Below, in pieces: positions 4,586 to 45,240 of a stretch of DNA of 53,962 bases. This DNA is from a virus: UHGV virus genome UHGV-0212970, one strand, 5' to 3'. Numbering within the stretch: position 1 is the stretch's first letter; each line of letters begins with the position of its first letter. The position numbers and the translations under genes were made by a program. The notes beneath the pieces were generated by a model. It was not told the DNA's origin. It did not search any database and saw only the letters and a list, made by a program, of their open reading frames with translations.

Positions 4586-4622
4586 TATGGTATTGCCTCC
4601 GGTTTACAAAATGGAATATTCA

Positions 4623-7950: not shown

Positions 7951-8059
7951 CTTGTTTTTCTCCTATGGTTAGAGTGAACGCGCGGGCGGGCATCCCATTA
8001 GCATTAGATAGCAGTGACTGACCGCTCAACAGATCCCGCCGTTGCGTGATATTTGTTTT

Positions 8060-8092
8060 TCGCTTCGCAGCGACACCGGATTTTTAAAGAGC
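8060..8092 (-). promoter_or_regulatory. nutR-like antitermination site (boxA GCTCTTTAAAAA plus GNRA-loop hairpin) on the leftward transcript
   Basis: Minus-strand GCTCTTTAAAAA is 1 mismatch from the rrn/lambda boxA consensus; about 11 nt further along the transcript is hairpin uCGCU-GCGA-AGCGa. Confidence 0.4.
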
Positions 8093-8168
8093 TTAAGGTA
8101 AGTGCCTTTTGTGCCTTCCGTTATCTTTTTCTTTGCGTCTTTGCAAGTATGGCCTTACCTTGTCTGCA

Positions 8169-8196
8169 AGTTTACAAAATGGAATTTTAAGATCAA
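8169..8196 (-). promoter_or_regulatory. Candidate leftward early promoter (PR-like) overlapping motif copy TTTACAAAATGG
   Basis: Minus strand TTGATC-N16-TAAACT; CCATTTTG element lies in the spacer. Confidence 0.35.
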
Positions 8197-8220
8197 GGCT
8201 TAAAATACACGTTTTGTGAC

Positions 8221-8248
8221 TTGCATCAAACCTTTTGAGGTTATAGGG
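8221..8248 (+). promoter_or_regulatory. Candidate repressor-gene promoter (PRM-like)
   Basis: TTGCAT-N16-TATAGG ending about 7 nt before the cI-like ATG; would give a near-leaderless mRNA. Confidence 0.3.
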
Positions 8249-8255
8249 TAGCGAC

Positions 8256-8903
8256 ATGAAAACAAAATGGTATGACTTAGCAAAGCAGCTCATGCGGGCG
8301 CAGGGCATGAGTCAGGATTCACTCGCAGATCTCATGGGGATAACTAAAGGCGGCCTGTCACACTGGCTTAACGGTCGCCGCGAGCCAAATCTTGAAGATA
8401 TTGCGCGGATTATGCGGGCGCTTGGGCGTCGTCAGTTCACTGTTACACATGATGGTATGGTCATTGATGATTCTGTTTCTAATACACTTCAGGCCGCACC
8501 GCCGCGTGATTTAGGTAGTTACCCGGTTATTGACTGGAAGGACACAGTAAACAATATGGATGACACAAGGCGATCAGCATTACCACACGTTACGACTAGC
8601 GTTATTTGTTCAGATGATAGTTACTGGCTGGTTGCCAAAGGTGAATCAATGAACGCGCCGCAGGGGTTAAGCATCCCGGCGGGGACGATGATACTTGTTG
8701 ACCCGCACGCGCCAGCTATTGACGGCAAACTGGTTATAGCCCAGCTTGAGGAAGGGCAGATACCGACGTTTAAACAGTTGATTATTGATGGAGGTCAAAG
8801 GCTTTTACGTTCGCTGAATCCGCTGTATCCGCCAATCCCTATGAATCCAGAATCAAAAATTATAGGCGTGGTGGTTGATGCGAAGATCGTAAACCTGCCA
8901 TAA
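8256..8903 (+). CDS. CI-like prophage repressor (XRE-family HTH plus S24 LexA-like peptidase domain)
   Basis: 215 aa; N-terminal HTH (SQDSLADLMGITKGGLSHWLNGRR), C-terminal S24 motifs (VAKGESM ... TFKQL). Confidence 0.85.
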   Translation: MKTKWYDLAKQLMRAQGMSQDSLADLMGITKGGLSHWLNGRREPNLEDIARIMRALGRRQFTVTHDGMVIDDSVSNTLQAAPPRDLGSYPVIDWKDTVNNMDDTRRSALPHVTTSVICSDDSYWLVAKGESMNAPQGLSIPAGTMILVDPHAPAIDGKLVIAQLEEGQIPTFKQLIIDGGQRLLRSLNPLYPPIPMNPESKIIGVVVDAKIVNLP

Positions 8904-8908
8904 ACATT

Positions 8909-8934
8909 AGCCGCCGAATGGCGGCTTTTCTTTG
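8909..8934 (+). terminator. Rho-independent terminator after the repressor gene
   Basis: Hairpin AGCCGCC-GAAT-GGCGGCT followed by TTTTCTTT. Confidence 0.7.
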
Positions 8935-9012: not shown

Positions 9013-9024
9013 TATACAAAATGG
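9013..9024 (-). promoter_or_regulatory. Copy of the recurrent 12-nt element (TATACAAAATGG) abutting the -35 of the rightward early promoter
   Basis: Exact motif copy; its reverse complement reads CCATTTTGTATACT (TG plus -10-like hexamer) facing the repressor 3' end. Confidence 0.35.
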
Positions 9025-9025
9025 A

Positions 9026-9054
9026 TTGACTCGGTGTTTTACGGGGCGTATATT
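9026..9054 (+). promoter_or_regulatory. Sigma70-type early rightward promoter (PL-like)
   Basis: TTGACT-N17-TATATT with AT-rich upstream region; followed by a roughly 340-nt untranslated leader. Confidence 0.6.
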
Positions 9055-9308
9055 GCGAATCAAAGGAAGGGCGCAGGTAACAAAAGCAACTTCCTGGCAC
9101 TTTAAAAATCAGGCTTAACACCTTGTCAACCGTGGAGTAACTCCCCGATGGGGGACCGAAAGCGGCACTGATAACAAGGCGCATGGGGTGTTTAAAGCGT
9201 TACATCCCCCACGAAACCGCACGCAAGGCGACGAGTCAGCTTGCTTGGAGTGAGCAAGGTCACGCCGGGAACGGCGATGATTGCGGGATTAGTTGAAAGA
9301 TGTTAAGC

Positions 9309-9347
9309 CGCTCATTAACAATCTGGTCAGCCGCTGGAAGTGCGGCA
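9309..9347 (+). promoter_or_regulatory. nutL-like antitermination site (boxA CGCTCATTAACAA plus boxB-like hairpin)
   Basis: GCTCATTAACAA is 1 mismatch from boxA GCTCTTTAACAA; 12 nt downstream hairpin GCCGC-UGGAAGU-GCGGC with purine-rich loop; just upstream of the N-like gene. Confidence 0.45.
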
Positions 9348-9402: not shown

Positions 9403-9693
9403 ATGAGCGTTACAATTATATATGGTAAATGTGATAGCAAAATGAATGCCAGGGAACGCAGAAGGATAAAAAGAGAAAACGAAAGAAAATCATCACCTGC
9501 AATCAATAAAACAGACAATGTGGATAAAGCTATTCGATTTGCAAACGAGGAAAGATGCAAACCAAATAGCATTAAAGAACGTCGCAAAGGATCAGTAAAA
9601 TGGTATACGGAAAATGAAAGCGGCAGCTACTACCACGCAACGCAACCACGCCATTTAGGGGAAAAACCCCTGGATAAAGTCCGCTATCATTAA
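9403..9693 (+). CDS. N-like transcription antiterminator (arginine-rich motif)
   Basis: 96 aa; MSVTIIYGKCDSKMNARERRRIKRENERK resembles the P22 gene 24/lambda N arginine-rich N-terminus as I recall it; SD GGAG upstream. Confidence 0.65.
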   Translation: MSVTIIYGKCDSKMNARERRRIKRENERKSSPAINKTDNVDKAIRFANEERCKPNSIKERRKGSVKWYTENESGSYYHATQPRHLGEKPLDKVRYH

Positions 9694-13507: not shown

Positions 13508-13605
13508 CCGAGTGATTCCGATTACATAAATATACATTATGTATTGTGATCGCATATCCGTTTTGTAAGCCAAAATCAAAAGGTTTACGGTGCGGAGGAA
13601 GCGAA

Positions 13606-15825: not shown

Positions 15826-16309
15826 CAGGTTATTAGCCTGCGTTTATGTCGCCGTTTTCGTGATTATCAATCTTATTGTTAACCATTGCGGCCCGTGGGT
15901 GATTCCGATCACCACGGTAGCCGCAGTGTGTGTCAATATGATGATCCGTGACCTTCTGTTATATGACGGCGGCCTGAAATGGTCGGCTACAACATGCGCC
16001 GCCGCTGGCGCAATCACGGTGCTGATAAATTACGACGCCGGAATGGTGGCGATCGCGTCATTCGTCGCGGTTGTTTCCGGTGCGCTTATTTCTGGCGGCG
16101 TTTACCGGGTTCTACCTGGTGATTTCGATTCCAAACGCTGGCCTGCAAATATAGCGTCCGCCATTGGCGATGCGTTAATTTTTCCCACGCTATCGTTTAT
16201 GGCATTTATGCCGGAAATATCAGCTATTCAATTCATCTCAAAAATGGCAGCGGTAACGGTGATTACTATCATCATGCGCCGCTATTTCACGTTTGAGGGT
16301 AGAAAATGA
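15806..16309 (+). CDS. Multi-pass inner-membrane protein (possible YhhQ/VUT-like precursor transporter)
   Basis: ORF track 15764..16309; 4-5 hydrophobic helices; family assignment tentative. Confidence 0.4.
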   Translation: MERVTIDRLLACVYVAVFVIINLIVNHCGPWVIPITTVAAVCVNMMIRDLLLYDGGLKWSATTCAAAGAITVLINYDAGMVAIASFVAVVSGALISGGVYRVLPGDFDSKRWPANIASAIGDALIFPTLSFMAFMPEISAIQFISKMAAVTVITIIMRRYFTFEGRK

Positions 16310-17069
16310 GCGGGCTTAGAAATTGGGTTATCTGGTCGCTGTACGACGGAAGCGGGTACGCCGTTAAAGATTGGGCGGAAGCTGGTATAAATGCTATTGC
16401 TTCAACTATGACGGCGCTAATCACGGGGATTATGACGGGGTAAAAATAATTCATCCAAATATTGAATATGTTAACGTATGGATTGACAGCCATTTCCTGG
16501 TAATGTTCTCCCCTGAATTGTCTGTTTATCCAGATCCTGACATTATCTTGGGCTTTCCTCCGTGTGATGATCTTGCCGTATCAGGCGCTCGTTGGTTCGC
16601 TGATAAACGGAAAAAAGATCCTGGCTTCCAGGTAAAGGCGGCGTATAACGCAAAAATTGTAGAAAAACTGGCGAATATGTATAACGTGCCGTGGATGGTG
16701 GAAAATCCAGTTGGCGCACTGTCAACGTTATGGCGTAAACCGGATTTTATCTTCAATCCTTGCGTTTACGGTGGCTACCTGCCTGAAGATGACAAACATC
16801 CTGCTTTCCCGGAATACATTGCCGACCGCGATGCCTACACGAAGAAAACTTGTATTTGGTGCGGGAATGGATTTAAGCAGCCGCTATTCCGTCCTGTGCC
16901 GATGCCAGATGAATGGGAAGACAGTAAGCAGCACGCGAAGTTAGGCGGAAAATCAAAGCGAACAAAGATGATCCGCTCACTAACGCCGCGTGGCTTCGCC
17001 CGTGCTGTATTCCTAGCTAACGACCGGGCCATCAATCGTACTACGCTCAACCGCGTTTTGCCGGACTGA
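16306..17069 (+). pseudogene. DNA (cytosine-5)-methyltransferase split between two reading frames (16306..16443 and 16371..17069)
   Basis: Upstream short frame encodes motif-I-like WVIWSLYDGSGYAVKDWAEAG then stops; ORF-track frame 16371..17069 carries motif IV GFPPC and motif VI ENPVG; junction within 16371..16443. Confidence 0.5.
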
Positions 17070-17091
17070 AGTTTACAAAATGGCGTCATTG

Positions 17092-17107
17092 TGTGATGAA
17101 TGTCACA
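17092..17107. promoter_or_regulatory. Perfect CRP-consensus palindrome TGTGA-N6-TCACA
   Basis: TGTGATGAATGTCACA lies between an inverted pair of the 12-nt element, centred about 60 nt upstream of the TG-TATACT element at 17139-17152. Confidence 0.35.
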
Positions 17108-17138
17108 TAATGGCGCTTTACACTTTGTTAGCACGTAT

Positions 17139-17152
17139 CCATTTTGTATACT
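17139..17152 (+). promoter_or_regulatory. Promoter-like element CCATTTTGTATACT (extended -10 type)
   Basis: Member of the recurrent element family; precedes the 17229 small gene and NinG. Confidence 0.35.
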
Positions 17153-17228
17153 TCAAGCAAACAAAATGCTCTTTAAAAATCCGGCAGCGCTGAAATGCGT
17201 AGAAATCACCTGAAAAGGAGAGAGCATT

Positions 17229-17405
17229 ATGCCTTTTGATAATTACCAATGGCATGACGACTATGAACGAGAAAGCGTTATGCGTGCAATGTGCAATGTA
17301 TGCAGCACGAAGAAAGGAGGCTGTAACGAGTGCAACGAATGCTTAGAACATTGGCTAAGGGCCGGACACGCCGAAAGGCTGAACGAAACAGAGAATCAAA
17401 AATAA
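17229..17405 (+). CDS. Small Cys-rich protein (about 58 aa, putative zinc ribbon)
   Basis: MPFDNYQWHDDYERESVMRAMCNVCSTKKGGCNECNECLEHW...; SD GGAGAG upstream; 3' end coordinate uncertain. Confidence 0.3.
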   Translation: MPFDNYQWHDDYERESVMRAMCNVCSTKKGGCNECNECLEHWLRAGHAERLNETENQK

Positions 17406-17418
17406 TCGGGGTGGTTTT

Positions 17419-18024
17419 ATGCAAAACCCTAAAAAACCCATAAGACGCCGTTGCAAGTGCTGCGGCGTTTTTTTTGAGCCTAAATATCATAATCAAACGT
17501 GGTGCAGCGATGAATGTCTGGAAGAACTGAAGTTTGACCAGCTATGCCGCGACCGTGAAAAGGCTATGAAGGCGATGGAACGGAAGAAACGCCGCAACAG
17601 CCAGCGGGAAGAACGCAACCGGAAGCGTAAGCAGTTAAATCCGCGTAGCTACTGGCTGAAACAGGCGCAAGCGGTATTTAATGCCTATATCCGCGAACGT
17701 GATGCGCGTTTGCCGTGTATATCCTGCGGGACTTATTACGGTGAGCAATGCGGATACGATGCGGGCCATTATAGGACTGTAGCCGCCGCCGGACACCTTC
17801 GCTTCAATGAAGATAACGTTCATAAACAATGCAGGCACTGCAACCAGACATTAGATGGCAACATCGGAGGGTATCGCCCGGCGCTGATTCGAAAAATTGG
17901 CCTCGCCAGGGTGGTGGCGCTGGAGAACAACAACGAAACTCACAAATGGACGATAGAAGAATGTAAGGAAATCATAAAAGTCTATCAGTCTAAATTAGAC
18001 GCCTTAAGGAGAAAGGCAGCATGA
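17419..18024 (+). CDS. ninG: NinG/Rap-family recombination-promoting nuclease
   Basis: 201 aa; Cys clusters and basic region consistent with NinG; precedes RusA as in lambdoid nin regions. Confidence 0.7.
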   Translation: MQNPKKPIRRRCKCCGVFFEPKYHNQTWCSDECLEELKFDQLCRDREKAMKAMERKKRRNSQREERNRKRKQLNPRSYWLKQAQAVFNAYIRERDARLPCISCGTYYGEQCGYDAGHYRTVAAAGHLRFNEDNVHKQCRHCNQTLDGNIGGYRPALIRKIGLARVVALENNNETHKWTIEECKEIIKVYQSKLDALRRKAA

Positions 18025-18449
18025 ACGAATATACATTTATCCTGCCTTACCCGCCATCATGTAACAGATATTACCGCCACGCAAGAGGGGTTAACTATAT
18101 AAGCAAGGAGGGGAAGAAATACAGGGAATGGGTGAGGGAGGTTATAAGGCGTTTTAATCTTGATATAAATCTAAAGTGCAGGTTATCGATAACGGTTTAT
18201 ATTGCGCCGCCAGACAACAGAAGACGCGATATAGATAATATAGGGAAAGCGTTATTTGACGCTATAACCTATTCCGGCTTTTGGGCCGATGACAGCCAGG
18301 TTGCCGCAATGAAGTTTGTTCGTTGCCGGAAGGTAAAAGGCGGACTCTTATTTATCAAGGTACGAGAACGCAACGACATGTTGCCGGATATTAATGAATA
18401 CTTAACTGATATGTGGGGCGACAATGGAGCTAATAAACATTGTTGTTAA
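18021..18449 (+). CDS. rusA: RusA Holliday-junction resolvase
   Basis: 142 aa; ILPYPPSCNRYYRH ... DIDNIGKALFDAI ... WADDSQV matches RusA signature residues. Confidence 0.8.
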   Translation: MNEYTFILPYPPSCNRYYRHARGVNYISKEGKKYREWVREVIRRFNLDINLKCRLSITVYIAPPDNRRRDIDNIGKALFDAITYSGFWADDSQVAAMKFVRCRKVKGGLLFIKVRERNDMLPDINEYLTDMWGDNGANKHCC

Positions 18450-18660
18450 ATGTACTCAATCAAGCGTCGATTTTTTCACTGAAGGTAAAAAATATTCAGG
18501 TTTTATAAAGCATGGATGCTTTGCCTTCATTTTACAAGATGATCTTGTATCTGATTTCGACGAAGCAGACGCATGGCGATTAGTCCAGTATTTCCCATCA
18601 AAAAACGAGTATTTCTTGCAGGGTAATTTTAAAACTAGGTTTAAGGTGGTAGAACAATGA
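18424..18660 (+). CDS. Hypothetical protein
   Basis: 78-aa ORF. Confidence 0.4.
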   Translation: MELINIVVKCTQSSVDFFTEGKKYSGFIKHGCFAFILQDDLVSDFDEADAWRLVQYFPSKNEYFLQGNFKTRFKVVEQ

Positions 18661-18839
18661 AAAACGAAATTAAAGATCTGCAAATAGATATTCAGCGCGA
18701 TGAGCATGATTTAGAAACCGTGCGACAAATACAGGCTTTCCACATGCGAGAATTGCTTGCGCTTAAAGAGCTTGAACGAAAGTTGGTGCAGGCAATATCT
18801 GATCGCAAAAGACTGGTTGCGCGTTACGGGGGCAAATAA
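18657..18839 (+). CDS. Hypothetical protein (coiled-coil)
   Basis: 60-aa ORF, helical heptad-like sequence. Confidence 0.4.
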   Translation: MKNEIKDLQIDIQRDEHDLETVRQIQAFHMRELLALKELERKLVQAISDRKRLVARYGGK

Positions 18840-19561
18840 TGAATCTGGAATCAATTCTTAAATTCCACTTCCCAAAATCACCTCGTTTGTCAGATGAAAG
18901 CCGGGGCACGTCCCCTGATGCGCTTAATACTACGGATGCACTAACTGCCGCAGGTATGGCGCAATCGCGCGTAGAGCTTGGTTACAGCGCTTTTTTAGGG
19001 AAGATGGAACTATCACAAGCCGAAAAACATAAGGCCGTAGTTTTGCTTATAGAACGTTTAAGGGCTATGGCAAAAGACTATGAATACGTTATGGAACTGG
19101 ACGAGGCCAAACGCAATGATCTCATTATTCTTATTGCCGTTTTCGCGTTTCGGGATTATTGCCAGAGCGCCGCGACGGAAAAAACTTGCATGGAGTGCGG
19201 CGGATATAAATTTACGTTTGACGAATACGGTGAAAAACACCTTTGCAAAAAATGCAAGGGGCATGGGACAGTTCGCAATCATTGTAAACAATGCAAGGGC
19301 CGTGGCGAAGTACCGGATAAAGCAGCCAGTGAAGCGGCGGAAATGCCAGTGTTCAAAACGTGCCAGCATTGCGGCGGGCGCGGGTACTCGCGTTTCCCTG
19401 TAGATCTTGTCCGGCAGGCGGTTAATCAGCTTGTTTTCCCGGTAAGCCGATCAACATGGTGGAAGAAATACCGGGCTTTCTATGAAGACGCCATTGCTGA
19501 ATTGTTCAAAGAAGAGGTGCGGGCTGACAACGAAATTAAGCGAGTGACGCGGGGTGAATAA
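18839..19561 (+). CDS. DnaJ-type zinc-finger protein (4 x CxxCxGxG), candidate late-gene regulator
   Basis: 240 aa; repeats CMECGG, CKKCKGHG, CKQCKGRG, CQHCGGRG; position after NinG/RusA is where Q-type antiterminators sit, but identity unproven. Confidence 0.4.
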   Translation: MNLESILKFHFPKSPRLSDESRGTSPDALNTTDALTAAGMAQSRVELGYSAFLGKMELSQAEKHKAVVLLIERLRAMAKDYEYVMELDEAKRNDLIILIAVFAFRDYCQSAATEKTCMECGGYKFTFDEYGEKHLCKKCKGHGTVRNHCKQCKGRGEVPDKAASEAAEMPVFKTCQHCGGRGYSRFPVDLVRQAVNQLVFPVSRSTWWKKYRAFYEDAIAELFKEEVRADNEIKRVTRGE

Positions 19562-20020: not shown

Positions 20021-20315
20021 AGATCTACATTTAAACCTGAAAGGAGAATACTTTTACGCCATCCGGGCGGGAAAGAAGGTGGAAGAATACAGGATTTACA
20101 ATGACTATTGGTGTCAACGCCTGGAAGGGCGGGAATATGAACGCCTGATCATTAAGCTGGGGTATCCAGCCAGCCACGAAGCGCACCGGATTATAAACCT
20201 GCCTTATTTCGGGTACGAAGTAAAAACTATCACGCATCCATTATTCGGCCCTGATCCTGTTAAGGTATTCGCAATTAAGTGTGATGTGAATTGGATGTTA
20301 AGGTGGGGTGAGTAA
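20004..20315 (+). CDS. ASCH/DUF3850-like domain protein
   Basis: 103 aa; LHLNLKGEYFYAIRAGKKVEEYR resembles the ASCH-like N-terminal pattern. Confidence 0.45.
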   Translation: MVMASKDLHLNLKGEYFYAIRAGKKVEEYRIYNDYWCQRLEGREYERLIIKLGYPASHEAHRIINLPYFGYEVKTITHPLFGPDPVKVFAIKCDVNWMLRWGE

Positions 20316-22724: not shown

Positions 22725-22911
22725 AAATGATTGGCTGAAAAACCGATGGGATTGTCGCCTAAATTGCCGTTTATCGTCGTGACTGATACTTACGGTCACT
22801 TATGGTATGCGGAGCCGCGCCTGGGAGTTGGTCGCTACGTTGTCCGTAGTTCGGACGGGATGATGATGGTTACTTTCACAGAAGAAACATAATGTAATCT
22901 ACATCACGATG

Positions 22912-22955
22912 TATACAAAATGGCATTGTTTCGGCGGTGCCATTTTGTTATAAAG
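22912..22955. promoter_or_regulatory. Inverted pair of the 12-nt element (TATACAAAATGG - 16 nt - CCATTTTGTTATAAA)
   Basis: Right arm gives TG-n-TATAAA extended -10 about 35 nt upstream of the 22990 gene. Confidence 0.35.
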
Positions 22956-39348: not shown

Positions 39349-40008
39349 TTAATTCCAGTTGCAAGCGTTTTTCACTTTGTCGATGTGGTTATAAAGACCA
39401 TCAATGTTAAACACTGCTTTCTCAATGTCGCCAGCTTCCGGCACTACTTCAATGATGAATTGTTTTTCGTTAACCATTTTTTTAATCATTGGGATGGCTT
39501 TTTTGCCATCCCATAATCCAAGAGCTTTATAATTAGTTGACCGCCCCCACTCAGTAGCTACAGCTTTGTGAACGCCGATCCGGTAGTTAATATAAGTAGT
39601 GTCCCCGGCGTCAGTTACATGGTGTGACCATGCTACGAACATTTTTGTTTTATTACCCTGGCAAGCGATTGTTAATACCGGTTTATTCTTATCCTGTGCC
39701 TTCAGTGTCGGGAAAGCATCAAGACTTCCGCTGAATTGTTCTGCTTTCACAAAAAGGAATACGTTTTTTGCGTCCTGCATATCATCTTTTCTTTCAACTA
39801 CAAGCCACTGTTTACCAGCATTTTCTTTTTCTAACTGTGCATCGTATGCGGCTTGTTTTGCTTGTTGTTCTGCAAGCCATTTAGCATTTTTCTCTGCTAA
39901 TGCTTGTTGTTCTTGATTGGTCACTATAGGCGCTTTTTCATTATCCTCATTGCAACCAACCAGACCCAATACCGCCGCAATCATTGCCACTTTTGCTAAC
40001 CGTTTCAT
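39349..40008 (-). CDS. Lipoprotein (moron, 219 aa)
   Basis: Signal peptide with lipobox LVGC; Gln/Ala-rich coiled segment then globular domain. Confidence 0.6.
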   Translation of the reverse strand: MKRLAKVAMIAAVLGLVGCNEDNEKAPIVTNQEQQALAEKNAKWLAEQQAKQAAYDAQLEKENAGKQWLVVERKDDMQDAKNVFLFVKAEQFSGSLDAFPTLKAQDKNKPVLTIACQGNKTKMFVAWSHHVTDAGDTTYINYRIGVHKAVATEWGRSTNYKALGLWDGKKAIPMIKKMVNEKQFIIEVVPEAGDIEKAVFNIDGLYNHIDKVKNACNWN

Positions 40009-40055
40009 AACCCACCACGCTAACTTGATTTACTGACCTTTCCCTTTGGCTTACT

Positions 40056-40099
40056 TATACAAAATGGAGTCGTTGAAGTAAAGCCATTTTGTATAAAAT
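40056..40099. promoter_or_regulatory. Divergent promoter-like pair built from inverted copies of the 12-nt element
   Basis: TATACAAAATGG - 16 nt - CCATTTTGTATAAAAT; each arm gives TG plus TATAA(G/A) -10-like box, facing the lipoprotein genes leftward and tape measure rightward. Confidence 0.4.
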
Positions 40100-40135
40100 A
40101 GATACACAGATCACATTTTTGCATGAGGTTAAATC

Positions 40136-43594: not shown

Positions 43595-43675
43595 CCATTT
43601 TGTAAACTAGCTATAATCATTGTGATTAAGATCTCATTTTTCGCGTAGAGGCGCGTAAAGATATATACAAAATGT
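43595..43675. promoter_or_regulatory. Divergent promoter-like pair of the 12-nt element (CCATTTTGTAAA ... about 56 nt ... ATATACAAAATG)
   Basis: Left copy faces rightward with downstream TATAAT; right copy on minus strand reads CCATTTTGTATATAT facing the moron genes. Confidence 0.4.
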
Positions 43676-45202: not shown

Positions 45203-45240
45203 TTAGCGTGACGCAGATCACAAAATCAGAAGGTGAGAAA

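Follow-up and report, generated by a model that had tools for sequence, protein, structure and literature searches.

The window analysed here, the whole 53,962-bp stretch of virus genome UHGV-0212970, contains a single perfect match to the core consensus of the host regulator CRP. This palindrome sits in a 160-bp gap between a gene for a DNA cytosine methyltransferase and a gene for a small Cys-rich NinF-like protein, and the gap may form a junction of a terminator, a CRP-dependent promoter and a nut site. Megablast comparison of positions 16300-18100 placed the window in the mEpimmI group, with MagusPhagus 94% identical and mEp554, mEp013, mEp010, mEp044, mEp515 and mEp021 85-89% identical over this interval. 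The mEpimmI phages are Nus-dependent, non-lambdoid temperate coliphages that depend on an N protein and carry three nut sites rather than two, and are reported to be equal in frequency to lambdoid phages among human faecal isolates. The locus was present in 35 of 5,426 complete E. coli genomes (~0.6%), one of them that of strain 09-00049 (NZ_CP015228).

The methyltransferase homologue in mEp021 is annotated as gp33, a putative DNA cytosine methyltransferase, and the phage's own N6-adenine and cytosine methyltransferase genes are both located just upstream of the palindrome region. The NinF-like gene is the first gene past the proposed promoter and nut site and is followed by an operon (17419..19561, plus strand) encoding NinG, RusA, two small open reading frames and then a Q-family antiterminator (Table 1). 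Pfam matches to NinG and RusA agree with the downstream genes named in a first-pass annotation of the window, made from the sequence alone, with the Q-family antiterminator lying beyond them. A 37-codon open reading frame spanning the palindrome (17080-17193), called as a coding sequence by Phanotate in MagusPhagus, mEp554 and mEp010, is probably spurious because it lacks a Shine-Dalgarno sequence and contains 1-nt indels in two relatives (L013 and L019).

Palindrome, hairpin, candidate promoter and nut site

The palindrome matches TGTGA-N6-TCACA at 10/10 positions, confirming both the exact match and the coordinates given in the first-pass annotation. It is the sole perfect occurrence in the window; shuffled sequences give an expectation of 0.05, with at least one occurrence in 5 of 100 shuffles. 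The flanks of the 22-mer consensus are poorly matched (TTG/TAA versus consensus AAA/TTT). Here and below, CRP-like sites were judged by the number of mismatches to the core consensus, with no CRP weight matrix.

The palindrome forms the apex of a 35-nt hairpin with a 15-bp stem, followed by a T-rich tail. In the mEp021 record (GenBank MH706966) the orthologous 34 nt (20087-20120) are annotated by TransTermHP as 'terminator TERM_4; score=79'. This is t4, which like t3 is a predicted terminator in mEpimmI phages, while t1, t2 and t5 have been experimentally demonstrated (PMC11893012). Folded as RNA the hairpin is more stable on the plus strand (-21.2 kcal/mol) than on the minus strand (-11.8 kcal/mol) because its three imperfect positions are G.U pairs on the sense strand. 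Across 33 variants the mean free energy was -18.3 (sense) versus -12.1 (antisense), and a stable hairpin was predicted in 32 of them. The base of the stem (GGCG/CGCC) is G+C-rich, on the transcribed strand and 13 nt past the methyltransferase stop codon (17067-17069), as is typical of terminator stem-loops. The tail of the window is among the weaker ones, with a score of 2.74 against a mean of 3.4 in relatives and 3.57 for the demonstrated t1; most relatives have TTTTC or TTTTT at this point, and the TTTACAC of the window misses the T-run rule of the terminator scan tool. This tool called no terminator at the hairpin in the window or in mEp554, and ARNold called none there in five annotated relatives. 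Covariation, tested on 31 sequences, gave no compensatory pair in either stem, inner or outer, and so neither supports nor refutes the hairpin, and an Rfam E-value scan of 16800-17600 returned chance-level matches only. Hairpin t4 is probably a partial intrinsic terminator of rightward early transcripts. The demonstrated terminator t1 (8909-8933), which follows the repressor gene, is terminator-like on both strands (AGCCGCCGAATGGCGGCT), with T-rich tails both ways.

A candidate promoter, designated P_R2, was called by the scan tool immediately beyond the hairpin. It has the form TTGTTA-N16-TATACT, with a 16-bp spacer and 9/12 consensus matches. Its predicted +1 (17159-17161) puts the palindrome centre at -59.5 to -61.5, consistent with the class I-like placement at about -60 claimed in the first-pass annotation, and 17 nt separate the 16-mer from the -35 hexamer, as in lac P1. 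The same annotation had pointed to a TG-TATACT element; the TG (17145-17146) and the hexamer are where it placed them, but they do not form a canonical extended -10, because the TG abuts the hexamer (-14/-13) whereas the canonical TGnTATAAT has it at -15/-14. A lac-like TTTACA (17117-17122) was rejected as the -35 hexamer, as there is no -10 at 17-18 nt from it and it is not conserved outside this lineage.

P_R2 points directly into nutR2; neither this orientation nor the hairpin had been noticed in the first-pass annotation. This nut site has been described as the third site of the N-like antiterminator Gp17, downstream of the C-methyltransferase gene (PMC11893012). It is identified here with a boxA, located beyond the promoter-like element, and the hairpin that follows as boxB, whose loop is purine-rich. 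Its boxA and the first five bases of the linker are identical to those of nutL (minus strand, 8093..8077), and the closing pair of boxB is G.U in the window, A-U in the related copy L043 and C-G in prophage E21845. The three nut sites are each downstream of a promoter associated with a 12-nt element considered below. Two candidates for nutR1 were noted, GGCACTTTAAAAATCAGG (9096-9113), 36 nt past the predicted PR start, and a site just upstream of the N-like gene (9309-9346) composed of CGCTCATTAACAA and GCCGC-UGGAAGU-GCGGC. A terminator-like hairpin with a T8 run lies just inside ninG, where ARNold terminators have likewise been annotated in five mEp genomes; it is the likely target of nutR2-loaded antitermination. 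A scan of GTDB genomes for nutR2 gave 0 matches. An unrelated-looking group of IMG/VR phages (L067, L068, L069, L093 and L095) has the exact boxA and linker AGCTCTTTAAAAATCCGG; upstream of it these phages have another hairpin and a promoter of the form TTGACT-N16-TAATAT, and they lack a CRP-like site.

Table 1. Positions in the window of the features at the junction and at related promoters.
Feature	Position	Strand	Details
DNA cytosine methyltransferase gene	16371..17069	+	phrog_757 DNA methyltransferase, E=4.6e-77
Left element copy, 16 nt	17068..17083	-	GAAGTTTACAAAATGG; reverse-oriented; nearly invariant in relatives
Hairpin, 35 nt	17082..17116	+	GGCGTCATTGTGTGAT-GAAT-GTCACATAATGGCGC; orthologue of mEp021 terminator t4/TERM_4
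CRP-consensus palindrome	17092-17107		TGTGATGAATGTCACA; centre 17099.5
T-rich tail	17117..17129	+	TTTACACTTTGTT; overlaps -35 hexamer
-35 hexamer TTGTTA, proposed P_R2	17125..17130	+	Scan tool
Right element copy	17139..17154	+	CCATTTTGTATACTTC; forward; gives last 8 nt of spacer plus -10
-10 hexamer TATACT, proposed P_R2	17147..17152	+	Scan tool; predicted start ~17159
nutR2 boxA	17167-17179	+	TGCTCTTTAAAAA; then linker TCCGGCA; position of nutR2 matches published site
nutR2 boxB	17187-17200	+	GCGC-UGAAAU-GCGU
NinF-like gene	17229..17405	+	Small Cys-rich protein; 'putative NinF' in mEp021; phrog_30170
NinG gene	17419-18024	+	Pfam NinG 8e-67
Terminator-like hairpin just inside ninG	17446..17475	+	Scan tool; T8 run; free energy -11.5; tail score 4.25
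RusA gene	18021-18449	+	Pfam RusA 1e-15
Q-family antiterminator gene	18839-19561	+	Antiterm PF03589 1e-29 and DnaJ CXXCXGXG
nutL	8050-8093	-	boxA AGCTCTTTAAAAA (8093..8081) and boxB TCGCU-GCGA-AGCGA
PL module	8169..8230	-	CRP-like TTTGATGCAAGTCACA (8230..8215), gap 18, TTGATC, N16, TAAACT; leads to nutL
PR	9026-9054		TTGACT-N17-TATATT
N-like gene	9403-9693		phrog_271
P13558 module	13511..13571	+	AGTGATTCCGATTACA, gap 17, TTGTGA, N16, TAAGCC; degenerate in window
P22940 module	22893..22953	+	TGTAATCTACATCACG, gap 17, TTGTTT, N16, TTATAA
P40067 module	40054..40115	-	TGTGATCTGTGTATCT (TGTGATACTGATCTCT in mEp021), gap 18, TTACTT, N16, TATAAG

Recurrence and conservation of the arrangement

The palindrome is bracketed by two copies of the 12-nt element in opposite orientations, one being TTTACAAAATGG at 17072-17083 and the other, inverted, lying at 17139-17150 (CCATTTTGTATA on the plus strand). 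This pair was correctly recognized at first pass, although the repeat is in fact longer than 12 nt: it extends over at least 16 nt (GAAGTTTACAAAATGG opposite CCATTTTGTATACTTC), and its arms stretch to 31 nt at 77% complementarity (repeat I1 of the repeat tool). About a dozen copies of the element are present in the window, nearly all intergenic, and most of them, read as CCATTTTGTAWA, overlap a -10-like hexamer (TAWACT) aimed at the adjacent gene. A scan for CRP-like 16-mers upstream of every copy gave four sites with two mismatches or fewer for which the distance from the centre downstream to the first C of the core CCATTTTGTA is exactly 39.5 or 40.5 bp. These belong to PL (8182, minus strand) and to the plus-strand copies at 13558, 17139 (the index site) and 22940. 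Random placement gives an expectation of 0.019 such sites, and none of 20,000 permutations reached four. The 16-mer of a fifth module, at 40067 on the minus strand, is 3 mismatches away from the consensus in the window, against 2 in mEp021.

The modules share the same layout of 16-mer, 17-18 nt, -35 hexamer (TTGnnn; TTACTT at P40067), 16 nt and -10 hexamer. Identity between modules outside these motifs is 0.25-0.45, and they are therefore not recent duplicates. The other four palindromes form no hairpin (-3.9 kcal/mol or weaker, versus -22.8 at the index site), indicating that the shared feature is a DNA motif at a fixed upstream distance and not an RNA structure. In 32 relatives the PL 16-mer is a conserved island amid variable flanks, P13558 has (C/T)GTGATTGCGATCACA and TAAACT in relatives, and in some relatives P22940 has a perfect aaATGTGATCTGTATCACA with a consensus flank. 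P40067 aims at leftward genes, including one downstream of it, within the tail-gene region (39349-40008, minus strand), whose protein has a type VI secretion VasI domain (PF11319, E=1.4e-15). In isolation the palindrome is only moderately improbable; together with the recurrence of its geometry it is far beyond chance.

To examine conservation at the index site, 54 related copies (41 distinct) were gathered from GenBank phages, IMG/VR contigs and E. coli prophages, all chosen by requiring the -10 motif TGTATACT. Among the distinct relatives xGTGA-N6-TCACA is kept in 40 of 41 (9-10 of 10 core positions), its central 4 nt take more than 10 forms, and the distance from its centre to the element core is 39.5 bp, again in 40. 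The sequence CCATTTTGTATACT is found in 35 of the 41, with the remainder 1 nt different. At the proposed promoter the -35 TTGT is kept in 40/41 and is followed by a variable spacer, while the -10 TATACT is invariant in 54/54 copies, a set selected by that motif. The most variable columns are those between the hairpin and the -35 hexamer and those in the first part of the promoter spacer. Conserved hexamers around a variable spacer would be the pattern expected of a real promoter.

Several further observations concern the CRP-like sites. Most relatives have GGATCACA as the right half-site, so that a Dam GATC falls within the CRP-like site, and the window has ATGTCACA, with no GATC; a GATC is also present within the PL -35 hexamer (TTGATC, 8191-8196). 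The PL site overlaps a possible rightward promoter of the repressor gene (TTGCAT-N16-TATAGG, 8215-8255), whose transcripts would begin at or beside the ATG at 8256 and might be leaderless, like the mRNA of lambda cI. Speculatively, a protein bound at the PL site could affect PL and repressor synthesis oppositely. Two sites with one mismatch, TGTGATTAAGATCTCA (43621-43636) and CGTGACGCAGATCACA (45207-45222), are near element copies and not at -60. The former is between two face-to-face promoters, beside a TATAAT, and the latter is a short distance upstream of the ribosome-binding site of the tail-protein L gene; its mEp021 equivalent CGTGACGTAGATCACA is conserved, 7 nt from that ribosome-binding site and ~18 nt from the start codon.

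The element was also considered in its own right. Its consensus, T[AT]TACAAAATGG, has 27 matches at two or fewer mismatches versus 9 expected. Copies are at 4603, 8171, 9013, 17072, 17139, 22912, 22940, 40056, 40084, 43595, 43664 and 45126 (also 13558 and 31514), and copy positions are conserved in mEp021. The register between the element and the best -10 varies from site to site (for example, a perfect TATAAT follows the copy at 43595), and its core may therefore be an operator or loading site, perhaps for the repressor or Q, rather than merely a -10. No consistent match by eye was found to a fixed -35 or to a DnaA, IHF, sigma-54 or TyrR site. In the inverted pairs at 22912-22951 and 40056-40095 the two copies are separated by exactly 16 nt, the sequence of which is unrelated between the pairs, and the reverse copy, at about -48 to -37, lies 1-2 nt ahead of the -35 hexamer. 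Next to PR a single copy (TATACAAAATGG-a-TTGACT, 9013-9031) is placed as these reverse copies are, a position corresponding to the proximal subsite of an UP element. At the index site CATTTTG of the right copy and CAAAATG (17162-17168, abutting boxA) form an inverted repeat around the -10 and start, with 14-nt arms at 86%. A similar CGTTTTG...CAAAATG pair is present at 17054-17083, and the right copy could pair with either partner in read-through RNA.

Competing interpretations of the junction

Sequence and comparison establish that the palindrome, hairpin and nut site are present and conserved, and that the geometry recurs at other promoters. The explanation preferred here, to which we give a probability of about 0.5, is that the region is a junction of a terminator, a CRP-dependent class I promoter and a nut site. 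Rightward early transcripts from PR would fold the 35-nt hairpin and be ended or attenuated at t4. Host CRP with cyclic AMP (cAMP) would bind the palindrome in the class I position relative to P_R2, a weak sigma-70 promoter whose -35 hexamer follows after a 17-nt gap, and transcripts from P_R2 would start (~17159) 8 nt before boxA. The arrangement would mirror those of PL with nutL and PR with nutR1. Polymerases starting there have not passed nutR1 and so would need Gp17, acting via nutR2, to reach Q. Once modified at nutR2 they would cross the T8 terminator inside ninG and continue into rusA and Q, while without Gp17, as in a lysogen, P_R2 transcripts would stop after ninF.

A number of points weigh against this interpretation. 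The promoter is weak by consensus and falls under the scan threshold in mEp554. Its activity and start site are predictions from sequence, as are CRP binding, the direction of any CRP effect and termination at t4. With a spacer of 16 bp, versus 18 bp in lac P1, the site is nearer the -10 by 2 bp than it is in lac. Only 15/41 distinct relatives have TGTGA as the left half-site; the other 26/41, including mEp021, have CGTGA there, and prophage E21845 has TTACA, a C-to-T change at a critical CRP position that keeps a G.U pair in the RNA. The whole intergenic region has a mean column identity of 95%, and stem positions beyond the 22-bp CRP site are conserved too, so that conservation alone cannot separate a CRP site from a hairpin; scans of IMG/VR gave only relatives of similar divergence, with no distant genera among them to tell the two constraints apart. 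The conserved 12-nt core has no explanation within a CRP model. Finally, the 39.5/40.5 offset was noticed in the data and not predicted beforehand, although with the index site left out there are still 3 sites versus ~0.02 expected.

The E21845 variant and the conserved outer stem would be accommodated if the palindrome were only the apex of the t4 stem, ending the methyltransferase transcript, with the CRP match incidental and nutR2 merely reinforcing antitermination of polymerases from PR. The TERM_4 annotation in mEp021, the stable sense-strand hairpin in all but one of the variants, the bias of wobble pairs to the sense strand and a T-tail score similar to that of the proven t1 are all consistent with such a terminator. 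However, this leaves unexplained both the CRP-like sites at the same distance from four hairpin-free promoters and the conserved TTGT and TATACT around a variable spacer; in addition, neither ARNold (five relatives) nor the scan tool (the window and mEp554) called a terminator, the tail in the window is weak and, at 15 bp, the stem is longer than intrinsic terminators usually have. A terminator acting by itself is considered unlikely.

Recurrent geometry indicates a shared upstream site but not the identity of its binder, and a somewhat less probable alternative is that the palindrome is a protein site at which CRP does not activate. At about -60 in this promoter family, GTGAT-N4-ATCAC could be recognized by another dimeric regulator, either a phage protein or a host member of the CRP/FNR family. 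Alternatively, CRP could bind and repress, for instance by occluding the leftward element copy at 17083; the -35 position of that copy and the left half-site overlap. Several helix-turn-helix proteins are encoded by the phage, the PL site is half FNR-like (TTTGAT), and the one documented case found of CRP acting on coliphage promoters, that of phage T1, is repressive (PMC6737242). The CRP consensus is, however, matched beyond the core, as in AAATGTGATCT of P22940 relatives and in TGTGAT...ATCACA, and a site at about -60 with a lac-like gap has the classic activating geometry. The absence of such a site at PR argues against a role as the immunity operator. Least probable, and very unlikely, is an RNA structural or processing element, such as an RNase III site or a stabilizer separating the upstream mRNA from the ninF-Q message, in which outer arms and inner hairpin would fold read-through mRNA into a duplex and the DNA motifs would be by-products: the 156-nt region does fold at -54.3 kcal/mol (z = -6.3 versus shuffles) and the I1 arms are long and complementary, but the outer stem lacks covariation, 13/31 sequences are mismatched at one outer pair, the outer arms are copies of an element found singly or at other spacings in promoter-typical DNA, and 16800-17600 has no Rfam match.

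The CRP-dependent junction can be extended, more tentatively, to the phage as a whole. It is possible, though on present evidence doubtful, that mEpimmI phages have a family of at least ten promoters with the core CCATTTTGTAWA, five of them with CRP sites at about -60, through which cAMP-CRP would gate lytic development. The 12-nt core would then be the operator or loading site of a phage factor (repressor or Q), giving two-input promoters. Were this so, PL would drive the leftward operon containing replication protein and helicase genes under CRP, and the other CRP promoters would be the early internal P13558, the nutR2/Q-operon promoter, P22940 ~3.4 kb downstream of Q and ahead of genes of unknown function, and P40067 inside the tail-gene region, serving leftward genes.

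Comparison with known systems

The archetypal class I CRP-dependent promoter is lac P1, in which CRP is centred at -61.5 and the upstream site recruits the C-terminal domain of the RNA polymerase alpha subunit. The lac P1 sequence used for comparison was confirmed at 100% against K-12 genomes. Both promoters have a TGTGA-N6-TCAC(A/T) 16-mer (TGTGAGTTAGCTCACT in lac), then 17 nt and a -35 hexamer (TTTACA in lac), and both have weak core promoters with the site upstream of the -35, from where it could recruit that domain in the window too. Besides the spacer, the window differs from lac P1 in that the site is embedded in a 35-nt hairpin, the core promoter contains a phage-specific 12-nt motif, and the system is known from sequence alone.

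The closest described counterpart is the orthologous locus of mEp021 (MH706966), where TERM_4 is the base-for-base equivalent of the hairpin and nutR2 is likewise downstream of the C-methyltransferase gene; the difference is a CGTGA half-site where the window has a perfect TGTGA. CRP is not mentioned in the 2025 description of mEpimmI phages, in which the word 'promoter' refers solely to the Ptac vector and no promoter is described at this position (PMC11893012). The order of promoter, nut site (boxA and boxB), small gene and terminator resembles that of pR-nutR-tR1 and pL-nutL-tL1 of lambda, as do the N-like arginine-rich motif protein, the Nus dependence, the ninG-rusA-Q genes downstream and the nin-region terminators upstream of Q. 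Lambda, however, has two nut sites and no promoter within the nin region, whereas the window has a third nut site 8 nt past a putative third promoter, with host CRP as the proposed input. A CRP-dependent third early promoter, if real, would explain the third nut site of the mEpimmI phages.

The influence of cAMP on phage lysis-lysogeny is an old question with few direct answers at the level of promoters. One of these comes from phage T1 (Laganenka et al. 2019, PMC6737242), in which the pir, dam and recE promoters are directly regulated by host cAMP-CRP, with the lysis decision thereby tied to sugar status. T1 belongs to a different phage family and CRP represses there, with experimental proof, whereas the geometry in the window predicts activation. 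If the present interpretation is correct, the carbon status of the host would be connected to Q by a direct molecular path and, via the sister sites, also to the leftward replication-gene operon. The CRP site, the terminator and the nut site are each of a known kind; what would be new is their apparent fusion at this locus, together with a candidate phage-wide set of CRP-type promoters.

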